Sequence record: PZ445443.1
Reading direction: 5' to 3' (one strand)
Source: a phage
DNA length: 64,000 bases
Position 1 is the first letter of the stretch; the number at the start of each line of letters is the position of its first letter. The translations under genes and the position numbers were made by a program. The notes beneath the pieces were generated by a model that saw nothing but the letters and a program-made list of their open reading frames with translations, was not told the origin of the DNA and made no database searches. This document shows positions 368 to 55,618 of the stretch, piece after piece.

Positions 368-850
368 ATGTCAGATTTTATGTGGAAAGTAGGTTACGCA
401 ACCCCTGAAATGTGTGAGGCTTGCTTTGTTAAAATAGGCCGCGAGGATATCGACAAAGTGATCCTTAAGTTTCGTGATGTGGCTGTGATCGGCAACCGAG
501 TGCTTAAGCACTTAAAGAATCTGAAGCTCACCAAAAAGAAGTTCTTCGGACTTTTCGAAGAGAAGGTTGATGCTTGGACTCATTGCATTCAGGAAGCCAA
601 ATCTCACTACAGTGCCATCGTTACTCCAGAACGGGTAGCAAAGATGGAAGGATTCATCAACAGCACAGAATTTGAGTGCCTAAAGGCTGCCCTTGATAGC
701 TATCCAAAGTGCCTCAAACACCTTGACAAGTATGCAGAAAAGGATGGTGAAATGTATCTCACCCTGGACGCATATTATGAGATGCAAGAAATTTTAAATT
801 TAGATTTGACATTGGTATCCACCGAGTATACAATAGGTATCCGGGTTTAA
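368..850 (+). CDS. hypothetical protein
   Basis: ATG 368 preceded by AAGGAG RBS (354-359); followed by intrinsic terminator. Confidence 0.55.
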   Translation: MSDFMWKVGYATPEMCEACFVKIGREDIDKVILKFRDVAVIGNRVLKHLKNLKLTKKKFFGLFEEKVDAWTHCIQEAKSHYSAIVTPERVAKMEGFINSTEFECLKAALDSYPKCLKHLDKYAEKDGEMYLTLDAYYEMQEILNLDLTLVSTEYTIGIRV

Positions 851-856
851 CACTAG

Positions 857-883
857 GCCCTGCCCGAAAGGGTGGGGCTTTTT
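857..883 (+). terminator. rho-independent terminator
   Basis: GCCCTGCCC-GAAA-GGGTGGGGC hairpin (GNRA loop, two G-U pairs) followed by TTTTT; identical copy at 11631. Confidence 0.7.
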
Positions 884-901
884 GCATTAGGAGACAGCAA
901 A

Positions 902-1666
902 TTGAAATTTATCTACAAAGAACACTACCACAAAGGTGTTGTGTGGAGTCTATTTGACGGGTCTGGTGGTGCAGTCATTGACTGGGCAAAAGCTGGGTAC
1001 CTGTGCCTGTGCTTTAATGCAGAAGGTGCTGATCACGGCAGTTATGCAGAGGTTATAACCGATCATCCCAACATTCACTATGTGGATTATTGGATTGACC
1101 CATGGTTCCCTCAGGAAACTTTTTGCATGTACCCAGCTCCAGACTTTATTCTTGCATTTCCTCCGTGCACGCATTTAGCGGTATCAGGTGCTGCACATTT
1201 TAAGAAAAAGCTGGCTAAGGACCCCATGATCCAAATTAATGCTGTAAAGGATGCTCGGGTTGCGGAAGAGCTGGGAGAGATTTACGATTGCCCGTGGCAT
1301 GTAGAGAATCCTGTGGGTGTTATGTCCACACTGTGGCGTAAACCTGATTACCGTTTTCATCCTTCTGACTATGGTGGGTATTTACCGGAGGATGATGTAA
1401 ACCCTTGGTTTCCTGAATTTATAGCTCCACGTGATGCCTATCCAAAAATAACTTGCGGCTGGATAGGTAATGGATTTATAATCCCGCCCACAAAACCTGT
1501 CCCGCAAATAGTTGACGCGGTTAGCGGGTATTCCATGCAACACGCCAAGCTGGGTGGAAAGAGTGCAAGAACGAAGATGATTCGAAGCCTCACACCACGT
1601 GGCTGGGCAAAAGCCGTATTCCTGGCAAACGAGCCTGTAGTAAGGAGCAGAATTAATGGGAAGTAA
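902..1666 (+). CDS. DNA (cytosine-5)-methyltransferase-like protein
   Basis: Motif I LFDGSGG, motif IV-like FPPCTHLAVSGA (Pro-Cys with Thr in place of Gln), ENV motif (HVENPVG); start set at TTG 902 after AGGAGA because the track start GTG 872 lies inside the terminator hairpin. Confidence 0.55.
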   Translation: MKFIYKEHYHKGVVWSLFDGSGGAVIDWAKAGYLCLCFNAEGADHGSYAEVITDHPNIHYVDYWIDPWFPQETFCMYPAPDFILAFPPCTHLAVSGAAHFKKKLAKDPMIQINAVKDARVAEELGEIYDCPWHVENPVGVMSTLWRKPDYRFHPSDYGGYLPEDDVNPWFPEFIAPRDAYPKITCGWIGNGFIIPPTKPVPQIVDAVSGYSMQHAKLGGKSARTKMIRSLTPRGWAKAVFLANEPVVRSRINGK

Positions 1667-3734
1667 ATTTATGGCATCTGCATACAACCGTTTCGGTGAG
1701 CCAAACCCGAAAGCAACTAAGTATAAAAGTGGGGGAAGTGTGAAACGAGACTATCGTGATGAAAAAGAAGTTGAAACTGTAGAGACTGTTTTAGAAAATA
1801 CTAAAATTGTCCCTGTCCCACAACAAAATATCGGTCTGATGGCTGCACAATATTTTGGTGTGCGATCAGCATTGTCACAAGAAGACGGTGTGACAGTCAC
1901 TGCAACATATTTCCCATATTACGACCGCTACGGAAATCTGTCCGGTTTCAAAAAGCGTGACTGGACGATTCCTAAAGAGCAAAGGGGCCATTTCTCAGTT
2001 GTTGGCATAGTAAAGGCTAACTCTCAGATGTTTGGGCAAAAGCTGTGTGCATCTTCCAACAACCGTAAGCAAATTAACGTTTGTGAGGGGGAAGGTGATG
2101 TTATTGCAGCATGGCAGGCTGCATATCAGATACAAGTAAAAGGGATTCTCACCAACGCTAAAGCCCCGGCAAAGGTGAAGCAGTGGGCTAAAGAGGTCCA
2201 GGACGGGATCGACGCAGTTATCAACGGTGGTGATCTGGCAGGAAAACCCTGCCTGCCTTTTGTTGGAATTAACTGTGGATGTGCAAACGCAGTAGATACT
2301 TTTGCAAACAATGAGAAGTTTATCCGTAGCTATGGAACAGTTGTGCTGGCAATGGATAACGATGCAGCTAACGAGGTAGAGAAGCAAAAACACGTCATTA
2401 AAGGTGTTGAGGCCACGCACAATATCGCAGCATTTTTGATGGCCGATAACGTTTACCACGTAGAATACCCTGGTGAAGTAAACGACCCTGACGGTGTAAA
2501 AGATATCCGAGACATGCTGAAGGCTAAAAAGCTGGAAGATATTGTCAACATGTTCCGGCACCCTGTTAAATATGTGCCTGATGCTGTGTCGGATTTAGAA
2601 GACTTCTCTATCGAGTCTTTGCGGAAAAAGACTTCCAACGGGGTAGATATCAGCGCAGAGTTCCCAAAACTGCAAAAAATGCTAAAAGGCTTGCACAAAG
2701 GGACACTCGTAATGCTTACAGGTCCGTCAGGTGGCGGTAAAACAACCGTAGCTAAAAAACTGGAACACTGTATTGCAAGATACCTAATGGACCCGACATG
2801 TCCGAAGGCCGATGACTACGAAGAGGATGATCGTCTATGCATGATCCATCTTGAGGAGGACCCAGAGGAAGCAATTAACTCCTTGTATGCAAACCAGTTA
2901 GGGTTTGATGTTAAAGAGTTTGTTGAAGATCCTAGCCAGTTTTTAACTGATCAAGAACACGCAGAGATTCACCAATCATGGGCAAAAGCTGGAAAAATCA
3001 AAGTGTTCAAACATTTCGGATCTATTCCGGTGGACGAGTTGATTACTAAGCTTAAGCAAATGGTTTGCCTGTACCATTGTCGTTATATTGTACTGGATCA
3101 CCTGTCCATGGTAATTTCAGGGCTTAATGTTAAGGATGAGCGAAAAGAACTGGACATGGCTATGACCCAACTGGCTGCGTTTTGTAAGCAGTTTAACGTG
3201 TTTATCTTGGTGATCGCTCACCTCAAACGTACAGAGATTGTGCCTCCTAAGGACAAGGATGGTAACCCGTTACCTTTCTGGTATCCTGTGCGAAAAGAGA
3301 ATTTGCGAGGATCGGCGGGGCTTGAACAGTTGAGTTGGGTAGTCATAGGTGTCGAGGCCGAAGAAATGGTGGATCGTTCTCGTGGACGTGTCCGTCTGGT
3401 AGGTCTTAAAAACCGTCCAGCAAAAGCTCTAGGTATTGCTGACACTTTGGTTATGGACCCGCACACAGGTAAGTTCCATGATGCCAGTAATTGGTACTGG
3501 GACAAAGAAATGCAAATGTTTACAGATGGAGAAGGTGGGGAGGTTGTTTGGAGACCTCAGGCTATGTTTGAGGATCAGGAGCATGCAGTTGTAGAAACAC
3601 CTATGGGCAAGGTTGTGGCTGATAAGGTTGTAACTCCTACTGTTAAGCCTGTTGACACGCAGGAAGAACTCCAGTACGATGATCCGTCCTCTGACCATGT
3701 TCCTGGTTTTGAGGATGATGAAACACCTTTTTAA
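1656..3734 (+). CDS. DNA primase/helicase (TOPRIM primase fused to DnaB-family helicase)
   Basis: TOPRIM motifs CEGEGD and LAMDNDAAN; Walker A GPSGGGKTT; Walker B-like IVLDHLSMV; AAGGAG RBS; 692 aa. Confidence 0.8.
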   Translation: MGSKFMASAYNRFGEPNPKATKYKSGGSVKRDYRDEKEVETVETVLENTKIVPVPQQNIGLMAAQYFGVRSALSQEDGVTVTATYFPYYDRYGNLSGFKKRDWTIPKEQRGHFSVVGIVKANSQMFGQKLCASSNNRKQINVCEGEGDVIAAWQAAYQIQVKGILTNAKAPAKVKQWAKEVQDGIDAVINGGDLAGKPCLPFVGINCGCANAVDTFANNEKFIRSYGTVVLAMDNDAANEVEKQKHVIKGVEATHNIAAFLMADNVYHVEYPGEVNDPDGVKDIRDMLKAKKLEDIVNMFRHPVKYVPDAVSDLEDFSIESLRKKTSNGVDISAEFPKLQKMLKGLHKGTLVMLTGPSGGGKTTVAKKLEHCIARYLMDPTCPKADDYEEDDRLCMIHLEEDPEEAINSLYANQLGFDVKEFVEDPSQFLTDQEHAEIHQSWAKAGKIKVFKHFGSIPVDELITKLKQMVCLYHCRYIVLDHLSMVISGLNVKDERKELDMAMTQLAAFCKQFNVFILVIAHLKRTEIVPPKDKDGNPLPFWYPVRKENLRGSAGLEQLSWVVIGVEAEEMVDRSRGRVRLVGLKNRPAKALGIADTLVMDPHTGKFHDASNWYWDKEMQMFTDGEGGEVVWRPQAMFEDQEHAVVETPMGKVVADKVVTPTVKPVDTQEELQYDDPSSDHVPGFEDDETPF

Positions 3735-3792: not shown

Positions 3793-6570
3793 ATGAGCAT
3801 GTGGTCTTTCGATTTTGAGTCATCCGGTTTGCTGGAAGACCCAGATCTTTATTATCACTGCGGCCTGTTTAAAGAGCTGAATAAGAACCGTTTTATGCTG
3901 TTCCTTCCTCTAAATGACCGCACACACTACTCCGAGGAGGATATAGAGAAGGCTAAGAACTTTATTCTGGCAAAGAAAACTCTTTATAAAGATTTTGAAG
4001 TTCGCATAGCAGATTTTTCGGAGTTAGAAGGTTGGCTTACAGGCAATTCCGACTGGTCACCAACAGCTTTGAACTGCCATAACTGCTACAGTTATGACTT
4101 TATGCTGATGGAAAGATTATCCGGTATTCATTTTGATATGTTCCGTGATCCTAAATGCATGGGGACTATCAACGACCACCAGGTCAACCTGTTTGATACG
4201 TTGGCGATGAGCCGAATCTTATGGCCTGATCGCCCTTTACCAAAAGGTTGTCCGGACTCTGTATTCAACCCGGTTACTAAGAAAATGCAGCCTGTCGGTC
4301 CTCACGGCCTTATGGCATGGGGCTACGCCCTTGGTAACCAGAAAGTTCAAATTGATGACTGGCGCGATCTTCCGTTGTGGAAGTATGTGGATCGTGTATT
4401 CGAGGACGTTATCATCCAGGAGCTGCTCTGGAAAGAGCTGGTAGCGGAATCAAAAGGTGTATTCTACGGCAAATCTGACATGCAGAACTTTATGTACGAT
4501 CCTGCCAAAGAGAAGCCGAAAGGGTTCAAGAAGATCACCTGGAAGAACGCATTACGCCGAGGCATGCTGCAGCACTTCCTGATGGAGCTGCAGGCCCGTC
4601 AGGGTGTGTATTTTGACATAGATGGGGCTATTGCTTTACGTGACCGTTGCGATGCGTGGATGAAAGAAATCGCTGATCGTGTTGAACCGCAACTACCTTT
4701 AAAAGAGCTGTCAATGTCTCAGCGGCCCAAGTTCCCTGAAAAGCCGTTTAACCAAGATGGGACAATCTCCAATAATGGTTGGAAATGGTTAAAAGATAAG
4801 CTTGGCTATCCTGTAGATATGAGCGCTTTAGAGTTCAAAGCCCCGCCTAAGCGAGCATTTACCTCTACAGGAGATGTCAGTAAGATGGGGATAAAATGGT
4901 GTGAAGAGATGGGCTGCAAAGACCCCGATAAGATGGCTGATTTCTTGAGAGGCTATATTAAGGGCACCTCCACACCACAACCTTTACCTAAAGAGCTAAT
5001 GGATCAGGCAATAAGTGATCTACAGCAGAAGCGAATGCCGGACTGCAAGATACCTATGAAAATCAGCAACCAGGACGACATTAAGCGATACCTGATCAGT
5101 GCTGGTTGGCTTCCGACAATGTGGAGAACTAAGGATGTAACTAAAGACAGCAAGAAGAAAGCTCTACCTGATGCAGATGTTGATGCACGAGTATATGCAT
5201 ATATGGACGAGCTTTTAGAGTCAGAGTATTGTGACCTGATTATCAACTTCTGGAACAAAACTGATGCTAAGTTCCAGACAACCGTGCACAAGTTCCGAAG
5301 CTTTCCTAACTCCGAAAGGATTAAAAAGGAAGTATTCGGGAAAATACGTAGAAAAGCTAGGGCACTTATTACTTCTCCGCAACTGAAAGATACGTTTGGA
5401 CACCTATGCCCTAATCTTGAAAAATTGAACGGAGAGATGGCTAAAGATATCGTCTTGTGGTTATCATTGCGAAACCGCAGATCGGTACTTGATCCAATCA
5501 AGGAGGATAAGGTTGATACTGGTCTTCTTAATCACCCACGTTTGAAGATTGACCATAAGCTTCCTGCTAAAAGTTCTGGGTTAACAAACACTTCCCGACA
5601 GAAACACAGTATTTGTGCAAACATGCCTAAACCATCTCCTAAAGTGGTTATGGGTAAAGAGATGCGTAGTCTGTGGGGTGTTCCTCCAGGATACTTTGAG
5701 ATCGGTATTGACGGGTCCAACTTAGAGCAGCTTATCGGGGCTTGGGGTGCCTTTGAGTTCGACAACGGCCTGTATTACGATGTTGTAAGTAACGGGGACG
5801 CACACCAAAACAATGCTGAGGCATATACAAAAGTAGCAGGTAGAGAGGTGTCTCGTAACGACGGTAAACCTATCACGTATGGGGTTATGTATGGGGCACA
5901 AAAAGATAAAGTTGCAGATATGCTGGACATCTCTCCAGAGTTGGGACAAAGGGTAATCGATGCACTCTGGGATGCCAACCCTGGTCTTAAGGGGCGTAAA
6001 GAAGATCTGGAGAAATTCTGGGAAGCAACGGGTAAGAAGTTTATCTACTCTTTTGATGGTCATGCTATCTGGACCCGATCTAAACACTCTTTACTTAATG
6101 CATACCAACAAAATGGCGGCGCATCGTTGTGTGACTTAGTTGGGATACTCATGCACCATCAAATGGTGAAGCGTGGGTGGTACGATGAAGGTGTTCGTCG
6201 TATTATCTATTACCATGACGAATATCAGCTTCAAGTCCCTGACACACCGAAGTATAAGACTGTGTACACCTTCGACACAATCGAAGAACTGGAAGCATTT
6301 AAGGCAGAGCAGGAGGCCAAACTTCATGTGTTCGACGGTCATAAGTACAAAAAGGCACGCAAGGATGAGGACGGAAACGAAGTGGTTGACAGAGACGGAA
6401 ACACGGTGTACGATCCTATCCTGAACGATGACGGAAAGCTTGAACTTATCTGGAGCCCTGTGGGTGAAATGGTGGTGCATTGCTTCTGGCAAGCTTCTAA
6501 AATGATGGGCGTCCCGTTCCAGATCACAGGTGAATACCTGTGTGGTCGTAATTGGGGTGATTGTCACTAA
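3793..6570 (+). CDS. DNA polymerase, family A (T7-like) with 3'-5' exonuclease domain
   Basis: Exo I FDFESSGL; motif B-like KPITYGVMYGAQKDKVADML; motif C YHDEYQLQV; AAGGAG RBS; 925 aa. Confidence 0.85.
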   Translation: MSMWSFDFESSGLLEDPDLYYHCGLFKELNKNRFMLFLPLNDRTHYSEEDIEKAKNFILAKKTLYKDFEVRIADFSELEGWLTGNSDWSPTALNCHNCYSYDFMLMERLSGIHFDMFRDPKCMGTINDHQVNLFDTLAMSRILWPDRPLPKGCPDSVFNPVTKKMQPVGPHGLMAWGYALGNQKVQIDDWRDLPLWKYVDRVFEDVIIQELLWKELVAESKGVFYGKSDMQNFMYDPAKEKPKGFKKITWKNALRRGMLQHFLMELQARQGVYFDIDGAIALRDRCDAWMKEIADRVEPQLPLKELSMSQRPKFPEKPFNQDGTISNNGWKWLKDKLGYPVDMSALEFKAPPKRAFTSTGDVSKMGIKWCEEMGCKDPDKMADFLRGYIKGTSTPQPLPKELMDQAISDLQQKRMPDCKIPMKISNQDDIKRYLISAGWLPTMWRTKDVTKDSKKKALPDADVDARVYAYMDELLESEYCDLIINFWNKTDAKFQTTVHKFRSFPNSERIKKEVFGKIRRKARALITSPQLKDTFGHLCPNLEKLNGEMAKDIVLWLSLRNRRSVLDPIKEDKVDTGLLNHPRLKIDHKLPAKSSGLTNTSRQKHSICANMPKPSPKVVMGKEMRSLWGVPPGYFEIGIDGSNLEQLIGAWGAFEFDNGLYYDVVSNGDAHQNNAEAYTKVAGREVSRNDGKPITYGVMYGAQKDKVADMLDISPELGQRVIDALWDANPGLKGRKEDLEKFWEATGKKFIYSFDGHAIWTRSKHSLLNAYQQNGGASLCDLVGILMHHQMVKRGWYDEGVRRIIYYHDEYQLQVPDTPKYKTVYTFDTIEELEAFKAEQEAKLHVFDGHKYKKARKDEDGNEVVDRDGNTVYDPILNDDGKLELIWSPVGEMVVHCFWQASKMMGVPFQITGEYLCGRNWGDCH

Positions 6571-25981: not shown

Positions 25982-26401
25982 ATGAATATTAAATCTGATA
26001 ATCCGGCATATAGCTTTGATAACGCTTTTTGTCACGGTCCGGCGGCGAAAGGTTTTGAAATTGATGGTAAACTAGTTATTGTCAATGTTGACGGGGAAGA
26101 GGTTGCAGTGTATCCGGTGGCAGACGTTAAAAGCCGTTTACAATGCCGCATCGATGTTACCGCATATCAGCTTGATCCGGTCCGCGTAGTCTCCCTGGTC
26201 CTGGAGGAAGAAATCAAAGCAATGCACCACAGCAATAAGTTTATCGGTGACGCGCAAGATAATATGAAGGTATGCCGCTATAAAGTTAATGAAGTGCTTA
26301 AAGAATATGGATTTAAGGATCTGATGATCAAACGTGATGAAAAATTTCGTTATCGTAACGACCTGGCAAATCGAATCTATGAAATATACGAATCATTATA
26401 A
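25982..26401 (+). CDS. hypothetical protein
   Basis: ATG after TAAGAGGTAAA RBS; last gene of forward block. Confidence 0.55.
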   Translation: MNIKSDNPAYSFDNAFCHGPAAKGFEIDGKLVIVNVDGEEVAVYPVADVKSRLQCRIDVTAYQLDPVRVVSLVLEEEIKAMHHSNKFIGDAQDNMKVCRYKVNEVLKEYGFKDLMIKRDEKFRYRNDLANRIYEIYESL

Positions 26402-26420
26402 TTTTTTAACTGAATTATCA

Positions 26421-26444
26421 AGGGGCTTAGGCCCCTTTCTTTTT
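26421..26444 (+). terminator. rho-independent terminator
   Basis: AGGGGC-TTAG-GCCCCT hairpin followed by TTCTTTTT. Confidence 0.7.
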
Positions 26445-27052
26445 GTCTGCTCTTCCCCTACCATAAACGGCCATACATGGCAAGTGGAATAATTGACGAG
26501 CCATCAATCCCACACACTGTACAAATATACATGTAAAATAACTATTGCATAACTTTTCATTGTGTGGTAGCAGGGCCATTTTTACACGTTTTTCCTTCCA
26601 AAATTGCACGTAATGCAGCATTTGCACAAAATTTAACCTGATGCATATCTTCAATAGCTTGTCAACAACTAAAAATCTTTATAAGTCATACACTTACATA
26701 ACTACAAAAGCGTTTTCTACGTGAAAAATCGAGTATAACTATAGCCGCCAGACCTCAGAATTTACGTACGCTCGACATTCTATAGCCTGCTAAGCATTTA
26801 TTCCAACCATAGAATAACGGAATAGTCAATACCTGCATAAAATAATTATTCGTGTAAACTGCATAACATAAATCGGCCCAGGTGTCAACATTTTTCGTAA
26901 ACAGTCCGAAATTATCACTATGAGTTATCATAAACAGGGAAATCTTTAGTCGTCTAATGTTTACTGTACATTACTATACTGACTGGAATCATTAGATGAC
27001 TAAGAGAAAGATAAGAAATAATTAACAATACAATTATTTTATCTGTAACAAT

Positions 27053-27322
27053 AAGGCAACTATGCAAACGAATGGCATGGCGCGACGGAGTCGCGACATA
27101 ATATAAAAGCAGTAACCATCACCCCCGTGATAGTTTGTCTGCAAACTATTAATCAGATCATAGTTGCCTTGTATTTAGTTAATCATGACATAACAAGCAA
27201 GGCAACTATAGATCTGCTAATAGTTGCCCTGCTTTTATATTATGTCATAGAAACACCCGAAGGGGTGACCAAAGGTCACCTGGCATGGCCAGTGAAAGAT
27301 TATTAACTTGCTAATAGTTATC
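27053..27322. repeat. array of 11 bp motif AAGGCAACTAT in both orientations (about 5 copies)
   Basis: AAGGCAACTAT at 27053 and 27199; reverse complement ATAGTTGCCTT at 27160; close variants at 27220 and 27314; flanked by duplicated GCAAACGAATGGCATGGC (27064, 27325). Confidence 0.6.
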
Positions 27323-27354
27323 ATGCAAACGAATGGCATGGCTGATTATCGGTG

Positions 27355-27440
27355 TGTAAACAGTCAATCATGTAAATGGTTAGCATGTGAACAATCAGGA
27401 ATGTAAACAATCCAGTGTGTAAACTAATAGGTGTGTAAAA
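27355..27440. repeat. six phased TGTAAAC-like repeats at about 16 bp spacing
   Basis: TGTAAAC 27355, TGTAAAT 27371, TGTGAAC 27386, TGTAAAC 27402, TGTAAAC 27418, TGTAAAA 27434. Confidence 0.6.
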
Positions 27441-28029
27441 GTGTCATGTTGTGTCAGTTAGGTCACATTATGTCATATTGTGTCAGACAAGTTTTTCTCC
27501 TCTTTGTCAAGTGCTGCATGAAAAATTTACAATCTGGTATGGTAGCATTTTTGCGGCCCTGTTTACATTCAGGGGTGTATGTATAATCCTTGTTGTGTGG
27601 GCGTTTAGACGTCTGGACGGTCAGAAGTCTGCAGGTTAATATCTAATCTATTGGCTGCTAACTATATCCCACACAAATAGTAAGAAATATGATTGTTATA
27701 TGCGTAAACTGTAACTCATGTTATCAATCCCTGTATGTATCGCCAGTGGTGCGCATAATGGGTATTATGTTAAATTGCCCGTAATGATAAAGGTTCTCAC
27801 AATGATAGGTATTCTCATTCACCCCCACAAAATAGATTGCAAATGTTGTGCCACTGTGTGAACGGCCTAGCCTATTAATTTGCCTCACTGCCTCGATATT
27901 TGAGAATTGTTATAAGAATGAGAAGTATTCCCATTTCGTCCGCCTGGCAGCACTCCTGTAGGTCAGGTCAAAATCGTGGTAGAACTGGACCTGTTCAGAT
28001 ATTTCTGGCTGACTCTTCAGGTCTGTGTG

Positions 28030-28555
28030 GGAAAAGCCAACCTCTCCGGCGGGGCAGGGGATAGGTCAATTAAAAAATTTACGTGGTGTATGAAGCGCTC
28101 TTCAGGTAAGGCAGGTATTATGGGATGAAACCCTCTTCAGGCAATGATATTTGTGGGTGTGATATTTGCTGGAAAGCCAGATATGACGGGACTCCCGGCG
28201 GGGCAGGGGTGGTACAGACAGGGAAAATATGAAGGATGTGGTTGGGTAGATTGATCAGACAGGTAGAGTATGGAATATGTTACAAGTATGTTAAATATGG
28301 AGGTTGAATATCTGTAGGATTTGTGTGTAAAATCAAAGACTTAAGTGGTGTTGTGGTATTTTCTATAAATAATTCAAGTTTAATAGGTGATATTTGTCTC
28401 TATCCGCTTTGTGTGGTAAACAGATTCAGATGAGATTGGTTTACAAGTGTATACATAATATACAAATTAAAGATACAAGAAACCCCCCTCCCCCTTCGGC
28501 TACCATTCACCTTTTCCTCTGACTGGTACTTAAACACTTATTCAGACTCTTCAGG
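28030..28555. repeat. dispersed direct repeats CTCTTCAGG (x4) and CCGGCGGGGCAGGGG (x2)
   Basis: CTCTTCAGG at 28030, 28115, 28150, 28547; CCGGCGGGGCAGGGG at 28063 and 28212, each preceded by AAAGCCA. Confidence 0.55.
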
Positions 28556-40353: not shown

Positions 40354-40638
40354 CTACCAAGTCACTGTCAAGTAGGCAACCGTGTTATTTTTCTCCGGAG
40401 AGATGCCAACAACATCCACCTGCAGACCTCCTGCCCTCAAATCCCCAACAATGTGTGGGAAGTAGTCTGAGAGGTGTGATGGGAGATTTATCGAAAATCC
40501 GCATCCCAGAAAGCCTGCTACCGCTTTATTTTGTATCTCCCCTACAATCGCATCATAAATAGAGTTAAGCTCGTCAGGAAGCGTTACAGGGCGTTTTAGC
40601 GCTAACTGGTGCAACTTGTCCTTAGCACTCATTTTCAT
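40354..40638 (-). CDS. hypothetical protein
   Basis: ATG 40638 overlaps the methyltransferase stop (ATGA). Confidence 0.45.
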   Translation of the reverse strand: MKMSAKDKLHQLALKRPVTLPDELNSIYDAIVGEIQNKAVAGFLGCGFSINLPSHLSDYFPHIVGDLRAGGLQVDVVGISPEKNNTVAYLTVTW

Positions 40639-41168
40639 TTCAAGTCTGCCTCTGGAGGTGCCAACCACATAAATGGCGGCAGGTCTAAACGGTTCTTCTT
40701 GTCCCACACAAAATATGCATATGCTTGCCCGTCAGTTCTGCCATTCGATTGGAATGATGGACGCTTAGATATTGTGATCACAGTGGTAGGTGCATTATCA
40801 AGCCACCATTCAAATCTGGCTTTGCTTTCCAGAAAATTAAGACGCAAAAGCATAATAACTACGTCAGCATCTTTCAACGCCTTGTCTACAAACTCACGAG
40901 CCAAGCTGTACGGTGGGTTGGTGATAATACAGTCAACATGGTTGTATTCTGTATTCAGATAGTCAACACCTTCTTGGATTTCTCCCCATGCAGATCCTAA
41001 CGGCATACGGGAGTAGAACACGCCTGAGGCGCTATTTCTGCAAGGCTCCAAATAGGTCCAATCTTCTGGGAACGGAATGAGGTCATACAGCCCTTCTGCA
41101 CACCACTCCGGTGTCACATACTCATCGTAGGCGTTACGTTGTTCATCAGGTTTTCTAGCACAAGTCAT
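40635..41168 (-). CDS. DNA N6-adenine methyltransferase (small phage Dam-like)
   Basis: Catalytic NPPY motif (DCIITNPPYSLAREFV); 177 aa; GGAGA RBS. Confidence 0.6.
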   Translation of the reverse strand: MTCARKPDEQRNAYDEYVTPEWCAEGLYDLIPFPEDWTYLEPCRNSASGVFYSRMPLGSAWGEIQEGVDYLNTEYNHVDCIITNPPYSLAREFVDKALKDADVVIMLLRLNFLESKARFEWWLDNAPTTVITISKRPSFQSNGRTDGQAYAYFVWDKKNRLDLPPFMWLAPPEADLK

Positions 41169-51773: not shown

Positions 51774-52757
51774 TTAACCTTTCACGAAGTGGTTATTAAG
51801 CAGTTGTCTGTGCTGAACCCACCCACAAAAGTTGGCAGACCAGAATTTACCATCACGGTCTTGATGGGTTACACCTTCCTGCCAAGTACTAATGTCTTGT
51901 GTGATTTCACATGAAGACAGGTAGTAGTTTAAACGTTCCATTGCGTTATCATGATCCATAGGTGTTGCCTGGTGTTCGTAAGGGCTTGCATGAATACGAT
52001 CCCCACCAATCAATTTTTTAGCCACACTGTCTGCCTTTTCAAACGTACTGTCAATATTTCGATAAGATACTTGTGCACAGCAACTAGCACTAATAGACAG
52101 AGCTTCTTTAGTATCAAGAATGCAGAGCTTTCCTTCTGTGTCACGTACAGCGTAGTTAAACTCTCCGTCCAAATAAACGTGCTCTACATATGGAGTGTGC
52201 CATTGACCTGGTTTAAGGATTTCAGGAGTGCTATTCACAAGAGCTTCCCACATACAATTAGCCAACATCTGAATCGTAGGATCCGCATCGTGCCAGCAAC
52301 GGAGATGGAAAAAATTATTCCACTCTGTGCTTGTTACAACTGTTTTCATGCGCTGAAACGGCTCCACTAAGCGGTTACATACTTGTTTATGGTAACCAGC
52401 AAGGGCGAACTTCTCTGCATGCCAAGCGGCGTTTTTTGCAGCTTCTTTCCAAAACTCTTCAGGGGTTAGCTCCATGTCAGTGTACTCTACACGGATCTTT
52501 TGATCATGTTCCCCACCATCTTCCATCCCTCGCTTATTTACACCGAAGCGAACTGGCATTGCCGGATTCTCCACAATCTGCTGCAGCATCTTGCCGACAG
52601 GCACTGCACGGGAAGACATGGCGTTTCGGCTGAATACTCGATGCGTCATAAGCTCTGAGTGAATAATTCGAGGATACTCTAGCTCAAAAGTGGTGATGCG
52701 CTTACCTTTCTCGGAAATGCTGTCAGCAATGATCTTTGCAGTGCACAGTTTTAGCAT
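51774..52757 (-). CDS. thyX: flavin-dependent thymidylate synthase
   Basis: ThyX signature region ELMTHRVFSRNAMSSRA (HR-x7-S). Confidence 0.75.
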   Translation of the reverse strand: MLKLCTAKIIADSISEKGKRITTFELEYPRIIHSELMTHRVFSRNAMSSRAVPVGKMLQQIVENPAMPVRFGVNKRGMEDGGEHDQKIRVEYTDMELTPEEFWKEAAKNAAWHAEKFALAGYHKQVCNRLVEPFQRMKTVVTSTEWNNFFHLRCWHDADPTIQMLANCMWEALVNSTPEILKPGQWHTPYVEHVYLDGEFNYAVRDTEGKLCILDTKEALSISASCCAQVSYRNIDSTFEKADSVAKKLIGGDRIHASPYEHQATPMDHDNAMERLNYYLSSCEITQDISTWQEGVTHQDRDGKFWSANFCGWVQHRQLLNNHFVKG

Positions 52758-52958: not shown

Positions 52959-53552
52959 TCAAATACCTTCTAAAAACTTTCCTATTTTATACCAACTATT
53001 AGCGATATAGTCAACACTGACCTTTAACTCCTCGAATTGCTCATAAGGCGTATCTTTTAGGATTTTAATAACTTCAGGTCGTGAAGCGAATTGGTTAAGG
53101 TATTCATGCCTGTCGTCAATTATAACATCTACAGCCACATTTCCTTTGAAATGTGTGGCGTAGAAGCCGTGACCCTGGGTGTGATCGTCCAGATCCATAA
53201 AATCACTGGTCCAACGCTTTAAGAACCTTGATTTAGATGCAAGGTGACCTTTCTTGCATACCGAGATAAATGCAAGCTTGTGACCACGAGCCACCAAATC
53301 TTTCATAACCTCAATAGCCCCCTCTTCAGGCTTAAGAAAGTCGTAGAGGAATGGGTCACTCCAGAAATCAAAAGGCCCTATGATGTTTTCTTTGGGGCGA
53401 TCAGGCCAATACTTTGACAGATCGTAATACATCAGCCCATTAGAAGGTTTAGCGACTGCCTTACTGGCTGGACCATACAAACGCTCCAACCACTCCCACC
53501 ATGCTGTTCCTGAATCTACCAGTGTCAAATCTACATCAATTCCGATTAACAT
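52959..53552 (-). CDS. HAD-family 5'-(deoxy)nucleotidase
   Basis: N-terminal HAD motif I MLIGIDVDLTLVD (DxDxT). Confidence 0.55.
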   Translation of the reverse strand: MLIGIDVDLTLVDSGTAWWEWLERLYGPASKAVAKPSNGLMYYDLSKYWPDRPKENIIGPFDFWSDPFLYDFLKPEEGAIEVMKDLVARGHKLAFISVCKKGHLASKSRFLKRWTSDFMDLDDHTQGHGFYATHFKGNVAVDVIIDDRHEYLNQFASRPEVIKILKDTPYEQFEELKVSVDYIANSWYKIGKFLEGI

Positions 53553-54378: not shown

Positions 54379-54837
54379 TTAGAAGTTTGTTTTTACACGT
54401 CCCTTTTCATCGACTTCGTTATTAGCTAAAAGCGTTACAAAGTCTGTGAAACGGACATGAAGAACTCTTTTCTTATCAAGGTATCCTAAAGCCACCCCTG
54501 AGAAATTTAGCATCAAAGGGGCTAAAGAAGCTCTGGCACTGAAATGCTGTTGTTCTACCCTTCCAACACCCTTAGTGTAGGAAGGGTTAAGATTGTAAGT
54601 TCTGAATCCTAGTTTTGTTGGAGCTTTAGAATTAAAAACAACTTTATAGCGTTTCTTACTCAACTTATGCTCCAGGATAAGCATTCCCTTATCACCCTTG
54701 ATAAGTTGAAAATCTGTAAAGTGCTCTTTTAAGACGAAAGGTAGTGCCAGCCCCATCGCCTGCCCCCTTTGTACCGCTGTCTCACCAAAAGCTTTTGCAT
54801 CAGTAAGTTCTTTGGTCAAGTCTATGCTTTTGATCAT
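54379..54837 (-). CDS. hypothetical protein
   Basis: ATG after GGAGA RBS. Confidence 0.5.
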   Translation of the reverse strand: MIKSIDLTKELTDAKAFGETAVQRGQAMGLALPFVLKEHFTDFQLIKGDKGMLILEHKLSKKRYKVVFNSKAPTKLGFRTYNLNPSYTKGVGRVEQQHFSARASLAPLMLNFSGVALGYLDKKRVLHVRFTDFVTLLANNEVDEKGRVKTNF

Positions 54838-55618
54838 ACCTAGTCTCCAAAATGTATTGTAGTTCTTTCTTACCTATACTCTTCATTCCGGCAGTCTTAC
54901 CTGCTTCTTCTTGAAAAGAAGAATAGCATTCAGCAAACACTCTGTCAACACCGTCAACTAAAGATTTTATGAAATATGTTGATTCTTCAGATTTTGGGTC
55001 ATCATCCCCCAATACTTTTCCAGCATTATACCCAACACGTCTTACACAGAAGTCGTAGTCATCTGGTGTGCTAAAAGAAAATAACTTATTCTCTCCAATC
55101 TTTACAGGATCCCTATTGCACTCCTTTTTCTCCCAAATTTGGAAAACACATGGCACGTCATAAGGTTTGCCATTAAGTAAAAACGAGTTCTTAGGGCACC
55201 TTTCGCTGTAGACAAGGTGCATCGACATGTCCAATTTGTTTGCAAAAAATATTTTTTCAAATGTCCGTGGCAAGATGAAGGCTATAGCCCCTCCAAGCTC
55301 TAGCAATGATGCACAATGGTTAAAGAATTTGCAAGCTAAGGATGAATTCTTGCCAAATGGTGGGTTACCTATGAAGACATCTGCCTTGGGATGCACCTCC
55401 AAGAAGTTTGCCTGAATGCACGGTGTTGGTCCTTCAAATTCAGGGTCTGGTACTAAATCGTACGACAGTATCTCTGAAAATAGTTTTGAAAAAGAACCCC
55501 TTCCAGCAGAAGGCTCAACGTATGCACAATTCCCATATTTGTCTTTTACTTTACCAACAAGATATTCTGCATACCCTGGGTTTGTGTAATATTTGTCGTT
55601 AGACTCTTTCTTGCTCAA
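54800..55618 (-). CDS. DNA methyltransferase (N6-adenine or N4-cytosine)
   Basis: Catalytic NPPF motif (FIGNPPFGKNS); 272 aa. Confidence 0.6.
   Translation of the reverse strand: MSKKESNDKYYTNPGYAEYLVGKVKDKYGNCAYVEPSAGRGSFSKLFSEILSYDLVPDPEFEGPTPCIQANFLEVHPKADVFIGNPPFGKNSSLACKFFNHCASLLELGGAIAFILPRTFEKIFFANKLDMSMHLVYSERCPKNSFLLNGKPYDVPCVFQIWEKKECNRDPVKIGENKLFSFSTPDDYDFCVRRVGYNAGKVLGDDDPKSEESTYFIKSLVDGVDRVFAECYSSFQEEAGKTAGMKSIGKKELQYILETRYDQKHRLDQRTY

Follow-up and report, generated by a model that had tools for sequence, protein, structure and literature searches.

The window analyzed here is a whole 64,000-nucleotide stretch of phage DNA (sequence record PZ445443.1), and the present study concerns the gene at positions 902-1666, which stands at the head of a cluster of replication genes. 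The window derives from a Vequintavirus, i.e. an rV5-like coliphage: over its first 8 kb, it matches upwards of 100 genomes of this kind at 97-98.6% identity, among them those of Escherichia phage JeffSchatz (Bas55) and nomine. We consider it likely that this gene encodes an S-adenosylmethionine (AdoMet)-dependent DNA cytosine-C5 methyltransferase of a compact, phage-specific family, produced together with the primase/helicase and the DNA polymerase. The locus is organized as follows.

368-850: upstream open reading frame (ORF), set apart from the methyltransferase gene by a terminator-like element.
806-834, plus strand: sigma-70-like promoter match TTGACA-17-TACAAT (11/12), from a consensus scan, within the 3' end of the upstream ORF.
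855-884, plus strand: terminator-like GC-rich hairpin (855-880; 11-bp stem with 7 GC pairs, 4-nt loop), then a T-run (TTTTTG).
890-894, plus strand: ribosome-binding site AGGAG, as read from the sequence, 7 nt 5' of the TTG start.
902-1666, plus strand: coding sequence (CDS) of the probable compact DNA cytosine-C5 methyltransferase, 254 residues (PHROG 757; BASEL label "Dcm-like"), assigned from homology, fold and an annotated twin.
1656-3734, plus strand: primase/helicase (DnaB-type; DnaB_C, AAA_25), with its ATG at 1656 and an 11-nt overlap with the methyltransferase stop.
3793-6570, plus strand: family A DNA polymerase of the replication module, downstream of the primase/helicase.

The longest frame of the methyltransferase gene runs from 872 to 1666 (plus strand), and the TTG at 902 is its likely start, which gives a protein of 254 residues. 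An exactly matching CDS is present in JeffSchatz (MZ501082), where it is labelled "Dcm-like C5 cytosine methyltransferase"; other records call the gene "putative site specific DNA methylase", "DNA methyltransferase" or "hypothetical protein". The JeffSchatz gene differs from that of the window in 2 codons, too few for a count of synonymous and non-synonymous changes to be informative, and tblastn against phage records showed that at least 95% protein identity is retained in about 115 rV5-like genomes. An ORF at 902-1666 had been proposed in an earlier note on this DNA, and it was borne out by the frame itself, by the identical JeffSchatz CDS, by thousands of homologues and by the invariance of residues C89 and E135. 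The same note had placed the gene first in the replication operon. It does indeed head the cluster of replication genes, and that it opens an operon is plausible, since a terminator-like hairpin lies upstream and its stop overlaps the primase/helicase ATG. The near-consensus promoter at 806-834 lies directly upstream of the hairpin at 855-880, such that a transcript starting from there would begin with the hairpin; the whole arrangement (806-884) could possibly function as an attenuator or a 5' stabiliser.

The protein falls in PHROG 757, "DNA methyltransferase", with an E-value of 6.7e-87 and residues 2-251 covered. This family, which is very common in phages of enterobacteria, was detected by tblastn in 1,504 of 50,697 phage records (about 3%), carried by rV5-like, phi92/Phapecoctavirus-like, T1-like (Drexlerviridae), Dhillonvirus, Klebsiella and Vibrio phages. 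A set of 5.8 billion proteins yielded 3,567 homologues, and an exhaustive profile search (E<=1e-3) gave 2,026 clusters at 50% identity, nearly all of them 210-260 residues long. Such numbers exclude a chance ORF, and this narrow size range indicates that the shortness of the protein is the family norm and not the result of a truncation. The family gene adjoins DNA replication genes in several phage groups. In two BFVD entries from uncultured phages, A0A6J5SE15 (1,397 residues) and A0A6J5NPY6 (1,126 residues), the compact methyltransferase fold and a helicase/UvrB-type protein are joined in one polypeptide, fusions that echo the frequent helicase neighbours of the methyltransferase gene in coliphages.

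We infer the activity of the present protein by analogy with its family, 54% identical in its KarlJaspers member, for which formation of 5-methylcytosine (5mC) in DNA has been demonstrated elsewhere with the Dcm of phage K42. K42 is a KarlJaspers strain (bioRxiv 10.1101/2023.08.16.553469). The Dcm-like protein of KarlJaspers (Bas06) shares 54% identity with ours over 235 residues, i.e. its full length (E=1e-87), and its gene, with a length of 711 bp and residues C82, E128, K175 and K176, presents the features reported for K42 Dcm in that study. There, the dcm gene was lost or silenced in all escapers from retron Ec86, and K42 Dcm expression was toxic solely in the presence of this retron. Moreover, expression of K42 Dcm led to high 5mC in multicopy single-stranded DNA (msDNA), as measured by liquid chromatography-tandem mass spectrometry (LC-MS/MS), and no such rise was seen with the C82A/E128A/K175A/K176A mutant (bioRxiv 10.1101/2023.08.16.553469). 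In a paper of 2026, this finding is cited as an established one (PMC12916289). Among the residues inactivated by mutation, C82, E128 and K175 are kept here as C89, E135 and K182; K176 corresponds to I183, at a position that varies among the 66 diverse family members on which our conservation figures are based (Lys in 31, Arg in 11).

For the K42 homologue, the sole demonstrated substrate is a single-stranded DNA hairpin, msDNA, which was evidently left unmethylated by the host Dcm in the same cells (bioRxiv 10.1101/2023.08.16.553469). One could thus wonder whether these enzymes would rather be RNA (tRNA) C5-methyltransferases like Dnmt2, or would act mainly on single-stranded or hairpin substrates instead of duplex phage DNA. 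The modified site, however, lies within the double-stranded stem of msDNA, and in several phage groups the gene is found among DNA replication genes, which also speaks against this alternative; we therefore hold it to be very improbable.

As regards the present protein itself, the expected motifs were read from the sequence and compared with those of M.HhaI, in a sequence identical to that of PDB 10mh, and of CmoX from Synechococcus phage S-B43 (PDB 8yf3), a DNA cytosine C5-carboxymethyltransferase homologous to C5-methyltransferases (PMC12783734). The following elements were found in the gene.

953-970, plus strand: motif I, F18-D-G-S-G-G23, the AdoMet-binding loop, paired by hhalign with M.HhaI FAGLGG.
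1157-1171, plus strand: motif IV, F86-P-P-C89-T90, paired by hhalign with M.HhaI PC81Q and CmoX PPC98S.
1304-1315, plus strand: motif VI, E135-N-P-V138, paired by hhalign with ENV.
1322-1429, plus strand: segment peculiar to the family and conserved in it, residues 141-176, WRKPDxxFxPxEYGGYLPxxxxHPxxPxxI, which follows motif VI and precedes the motif VIII-like strand.
1430-1486, plus strand: motif VIII-like region, R177-D-A-Y-P-K182-I-T184-C-G-W187...P195, with a beta-strand at 184-189 in the model.
1487-1552, plus strand: variable loop, residues 196-217, the sole variable segment resembling a target-recognition domain (TRD); mean top-residue frequency 0.29, entropy 2.98.
1553-1630, plus strand: C-terminal element, G218-G-K-S...I227-R228-S-L-T-P-R233-G...A-N243, then a long helix; conserved in the family.

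Motifs I, IV and VI (FDGSGG, FPPCT and ENPV) follow each other as in classical C5-methyltransferases. FDGSGG stands where the earlier note had read motif I, and conforms to the family consensus (F/Y)-D-x-(T/S)-G. In motif IV, C89 is the predicted catalytic nucleophile, equivalent to K42 Dcm C82; like E135, it is present in 66/66 members, and it is surrounded by F86 (61/66), P87 (at least 60/66) and T90 (60/66). That a Thr follows Pro-Cys had been correctly noticed, but the motif can hardly be termed altered: PC-T is the norm of the family, and this position also varies in proven C5 enzymes, with PC-N in DNMT3B and PC-S in CmoX. Likewise, the motif VI announced as ENV is present, although its letters are in fact ENP followed by V; E135 corresponds to M.HhaI E119, and N136 and P137 are found in 62 and 65 members, respectively. 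Beyond motif VI, the segment 141-176 (mean top-residue frequency 0.55) is without counterpart in a profile of HhaI and CmoX, and may be a DNA-contact element. Further on, K182 and T184 are each conserved in 65/66 members, W187 and P195 are invariant, and K182 probably stands in for the arginine of the motif VIII RxR. Finally, the C-terminal element comprises R228 (64/66), S229 (61/66), T231 (60/66) and P232 (64/66).

These residues suggest how the enzyme could work. It would methylate cytosines at a short motif in newly replicated phage DNA through the classical C5 chemistry: C89 would attack C6 of a flipped-out cytosine, E135 would hold N3/N4 and K182 would act in place of the motif VIII arginine, while the methyl group would pass from AdoMet to C5 prior to beta-elimination. 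The purpose of this modification would be to shield phage DNA from cytosine-sensitive restriction enzymes. As a side effect, such enzymes can trigger retron Ec86 via msDNA methylation (bioRxiv 10.1101/2023.08.16.553469).

The fold was analyzed with an AlphaFold2 model built from 24 sequences (predicted local distance difference test score 84, predicted template-modelling score 0.87), in which residues 233-253 form a C-terminal helix of 21 residues. In Foldseek searches, DNMT3A/B came on top among PDB structures (E about 1e-5, template-modelling score about 0.5), and phage "cytosine methylases", including some helicase fusions, were matched among viral models with E-values down to 4e-25. As modelled, the protein has the Rossmann-type fold of DNA C5-methyltransferases. 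Using hhalign, the family profile was aligned with the HhaI and CmoX profile over motifs I-IV (Prob 85%, E=6.6e-6), and a longer alignment also paired ENP with ENV. The alignment with M.HhaI alone was not significant, significance over motifs I-IV having come when CmoX and HhaI homologues were added, and the C-terminal half gave no confident hhalign alignment with HhaI/CmoX. Searches of PDB sequences with the single sequence or a profile returned only marginal matches to the N-terminal parts of DNMT3B and HaeIII (E 0.1-1), and a broader profile gave no match there. Altogether, motifs, fold and homology uphold the C5-methyltransferase-like identity given in the earlier note. Full-length homology to a canonical C5-methyltransferase with a standard TRD, which that note had named as speaking against its view, was not found.

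The nature of the fold also bears on the proposal that the protein acts on nucleotides, namely on free dCMP or dCTP as the opening step of a hypermodification pathway, and not on DNA. This idea draws on the very short length of the protein, which leaves hardly any room for a TRD, and on the place of its gene as the first of the replication cluster. The enzymes known to modify pyrimidines at C5 on the nucleotide level have the thymidylate-synthase fold and are not Rossmann-fold methyltransferases, whereas the fold here is that of a DNA C5-methyltransferase. Furthermore, the K42/KarlJaspers family member modifies DNA, and the sole thymidylate synthase encoded in the window is of the ordinary ThyX type. 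The JeffSchatz annotation and Pfam scans covering 10 unassigned window ORFs revealed no partner of the dCTPase, kinase, transferase or dioxygenase type, and no TET/5mYOX, CmoA, ligase or glycosyltransferase. The DNA of Vequintavirinae is readily restricted (PMC8594841), which argues against a bulk base replacement. On these grounds, we find an action on nucleotides scarcely credible and prefer a DNA cytosine-C5 methyltransferase.

Several points nevertheless weigh against this assignment. In database searches, the protein does not match PF00145 in Pfam even at E<=1, two of the 66 family members matching it weakly (best E=0.0039), and the NCBIfam search gave no match; many genomes label the family hypothetical because both resources miss it. 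In the protein, the canonical QxRxR is absent, there is no normal TRD, one single element of the motif IX/X type is found, and N39 occupies the place of a ribose-binding Asp present in most of the family. Taken together, these deviations could mean that the protein is catalytically dead and fulfills another role, for example in DNA binding or regulation. We judge this extremely unlikely. The protein retains the nucleophilic Cys, the glutamate of ENP, the glycine of motif I and K182, and its gene is strongly conserved over about 115 genomes. As for N39, it is invariant in the alignment of 24 enterobacterial-phage sequences, a group in which the KarlJaspers Dcm, 54% identical to our protein, ranks with the rest by score and whose K42 relative is active.

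The remaining objections concern function. We found no published experiment on the present protein or on a Vequintavirus orthologue. As to the target, K42 Dcm was taken to recognize CCWGG by analogy with the host Dcm, an assumption backed by msDNA mutants alone, in a dcm+ host (bioRxiv 10.1101/2023.08.16.553469). CCWGG as the target of the present enzyme would thus be a guess by analogy; with 121 sites in the window, versus 77 expected from base composition or 147 from a Markov model, this motif is not avoided, and the count is neutral. As to protection, the presence of these methyltransferase genes was not linked to restriction resistance in the BASEL work, which described the Vequintavirinae as "exceptionally susceptible" to restriction-modification systems (PMC8594841). 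A protective benefit is for these two reasons unproven. For rV5-like phages, the literature offered as methylome or restriction data only the adenine methylation of Bas51 and the BASEL restriction phenotypes; papers on Druantia and OI-172 contributed no relevant data.

The C-terminal part of the enzyme is unusual. As pointed out in the earlier note, so short a protein has little room for a TRD: about 65 residues are left after the beta-strand T184-G189, among which the single variable stretch is the 22-residue loop 196-217. The spacing from K182 to R228 is about 45 residues, versus about 135 in M.HhaI (R165 to N304); between motifs VIII and X of DNMT3A it is about 95, as estimated from published residue numbering. 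From its sequence, the architecture is truly non-canonical. The element IRSLTPRG can be likened to motif IX (RxLTPRE), as in the top local BLASTP match to E. coli Dcm, RRLTPRECARLM (R400-M411), which is not significant (E=1.2). It can also be likened to motif X (GNxVPP), being placed by hhalign onto FGNSVV/VGRMVP, again without significance (E=0.22). The C-terminal element also resembles GRSWSVP of DNMT3A, as checked on the DNMT3A sequence.

This element brings CmoX into the discussion. CmoX takes carboxy-AdoMet through R350, located at the position of M.HhaI N304, and has a P-P-C motif (PMC12783734). By comparison, our enzyme could be a C5 alkyltransferase whose cofactor would be carboxy-AdoMet supplied by the host CmoA and whose product would be 5-carboxymethylcytosine, either by itself or beside 5mC. 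In favor of such an activity, the P-P-C motif is common to CmoX and the family, R228 lies at or beside the R350/N304 position, with a register uncertain by one residue, and CmoX functioned in E. coli on host-made carboxy-AdoMet. Yet the K42 homologue yielded 5mC by LC-MS/MS, and the motif is FPPC here, F86 being found in 61 members, and not the SPPC that defines CmoX. Moreover, the sole computed alignment, the non-significant one at E=0.22, places S229 and not R228 on R350. DNMT3A, which uses AdoMet, likewise has Arg-Ser at that place (GRSWSVP). Neither CmoA nor a CmoY-type ligase was found in the JeffSchatz annotation or among the 10 scanned ORFs of the window. A CmoX-like activity thus appears very improbable to us. 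Equally doubtful is a more daring hypothesis, in which the core of about 230 residues would be a natural minimal C5-cytosine transferase that has lost its TRD, with motifs IX/X merged or lost, that would read DNA through the segment 141-176 and the 22-residue loop, and in which R228 would allow the use of host-made carboxy-AdoMet. If it were true, the DNA of rV5-, T1- and Dhillonvirus-like coliphages would bear 5-carboxymethylcytosine at specific sites, a modification that escapes standard 5mC assays.

Other features of the window deserve mention. Three further putative N6-adenine methyltransferases are annotated in JeffSchatz, at window positions 40635-41168 (minus strand) and 54800-55618 (minus strand) and at 63941-65266 of MZ501082, just left of the window; the one of 177 residues has weak Pfam matches to Dam/EcoRI-methylase families. 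An N6-adenine methyltransferase of Bas51, a related phage, acts as a trigger of retrons Asa1 and Squ1 (PMC12548924). RCCGGY is strongly avoided in the 64-kb window, with 2 sites versus 33 expected from base composition or 14 from a Markov model, which suggests selection by a Cfr10I/BsrFI-type restriction enzyme outside the cover of the phage methylases. CCCGGG has 0 sites, and GATC, with 346, is not avoided.

The annotated "thymidylate synthase" at 51774-52757 (minus strand) is the flavin-dependent ThyX (PF02511), which an NT5C-type 5'-deoxynucleotidase adjoins at 52959-53552 (minus strand). The region 26400-28400, of about 2 kb, is a strand switch devoid of long ORF, tRNA or Rfam match, and corresponds to an unannotated gap in JeffSchatz. 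It contains a repeat cluster at 27046-27345, with iteron-like "ATAGTTGCC" repeats, both direct and inverted, a 20-nt direct repeat with exact copies at 27062 and 27323, and an 18-nt inverted repeat with perfectly matching arms (27095-27112 and 27229-27246); this region could serve as an origin or in regulation. Next to it, a 139-residue ORF at 25982-26401 (plus strand) lies where the window exceeds JeffSchatz by about 1.4 kb, as deduced from the offset of the ThyX coordinates, and may be an insertion or a variable gene.

A parallel can finally be drawn with known systems. E. coli Dcm has the C5-methyltransferase fold in common with our protein but comprises 472 residues with a full TRD, and comparison of the two revealed no significant similarity (BLASTP E=1.2; hhalign Prob 1.7%). 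On this basis, "Dcm-like" is a nickname taken from an assumed function and denotes no orthology. CmoX is larger (372 residues), matches PF00145 and carries both SPPC and R350; its flanking genes encode CmoA and a ligase, neither of which was seen around the gene here. With the catalytic domains of mammalian DNMT3A/DNMT3B, identity is only 12-16%; these enzymes have distinct motifs VIII (RxR), IX and X, with about 95 residues between VIII and X where about 45 are found here. DNMT3 acts in oligomers that include DNMT3L. Compared to M.HhaI and the classical type II C5-methyltransferases (PF00145), our protein is below the Pfam threshold, lacks QxRxR and the TRD/small domain of about 80 residues, has a single IX/X motif and is about 75 residues shorter. 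Its architecture is among the shortest of C5-methyltransferases, a minimal design that is under-studied.

The closest parallel is with K42/KarlJaspers Dcm, which belongs to the same family and has the same architecture (236 residues there, 254 here) and the same replication-gene surroundings. The differences are a 10-residue N-terminal extension here, a variable loop of the "GYSMQH" subtype here and of the "DNPGW" subtype in KarlJaspers/K42, and the phages themselves, a 136-kb myovirus here and a T1-like siphovirus there. Since the variable loops differ, the specificity of K42 Dcm is not simply transferable. All the same, the present gene encodes what is, in our opinion, an ordinary and already annotated enzyme, a member of whose family has already been published as forming 5mC and triggering retron Ec86.
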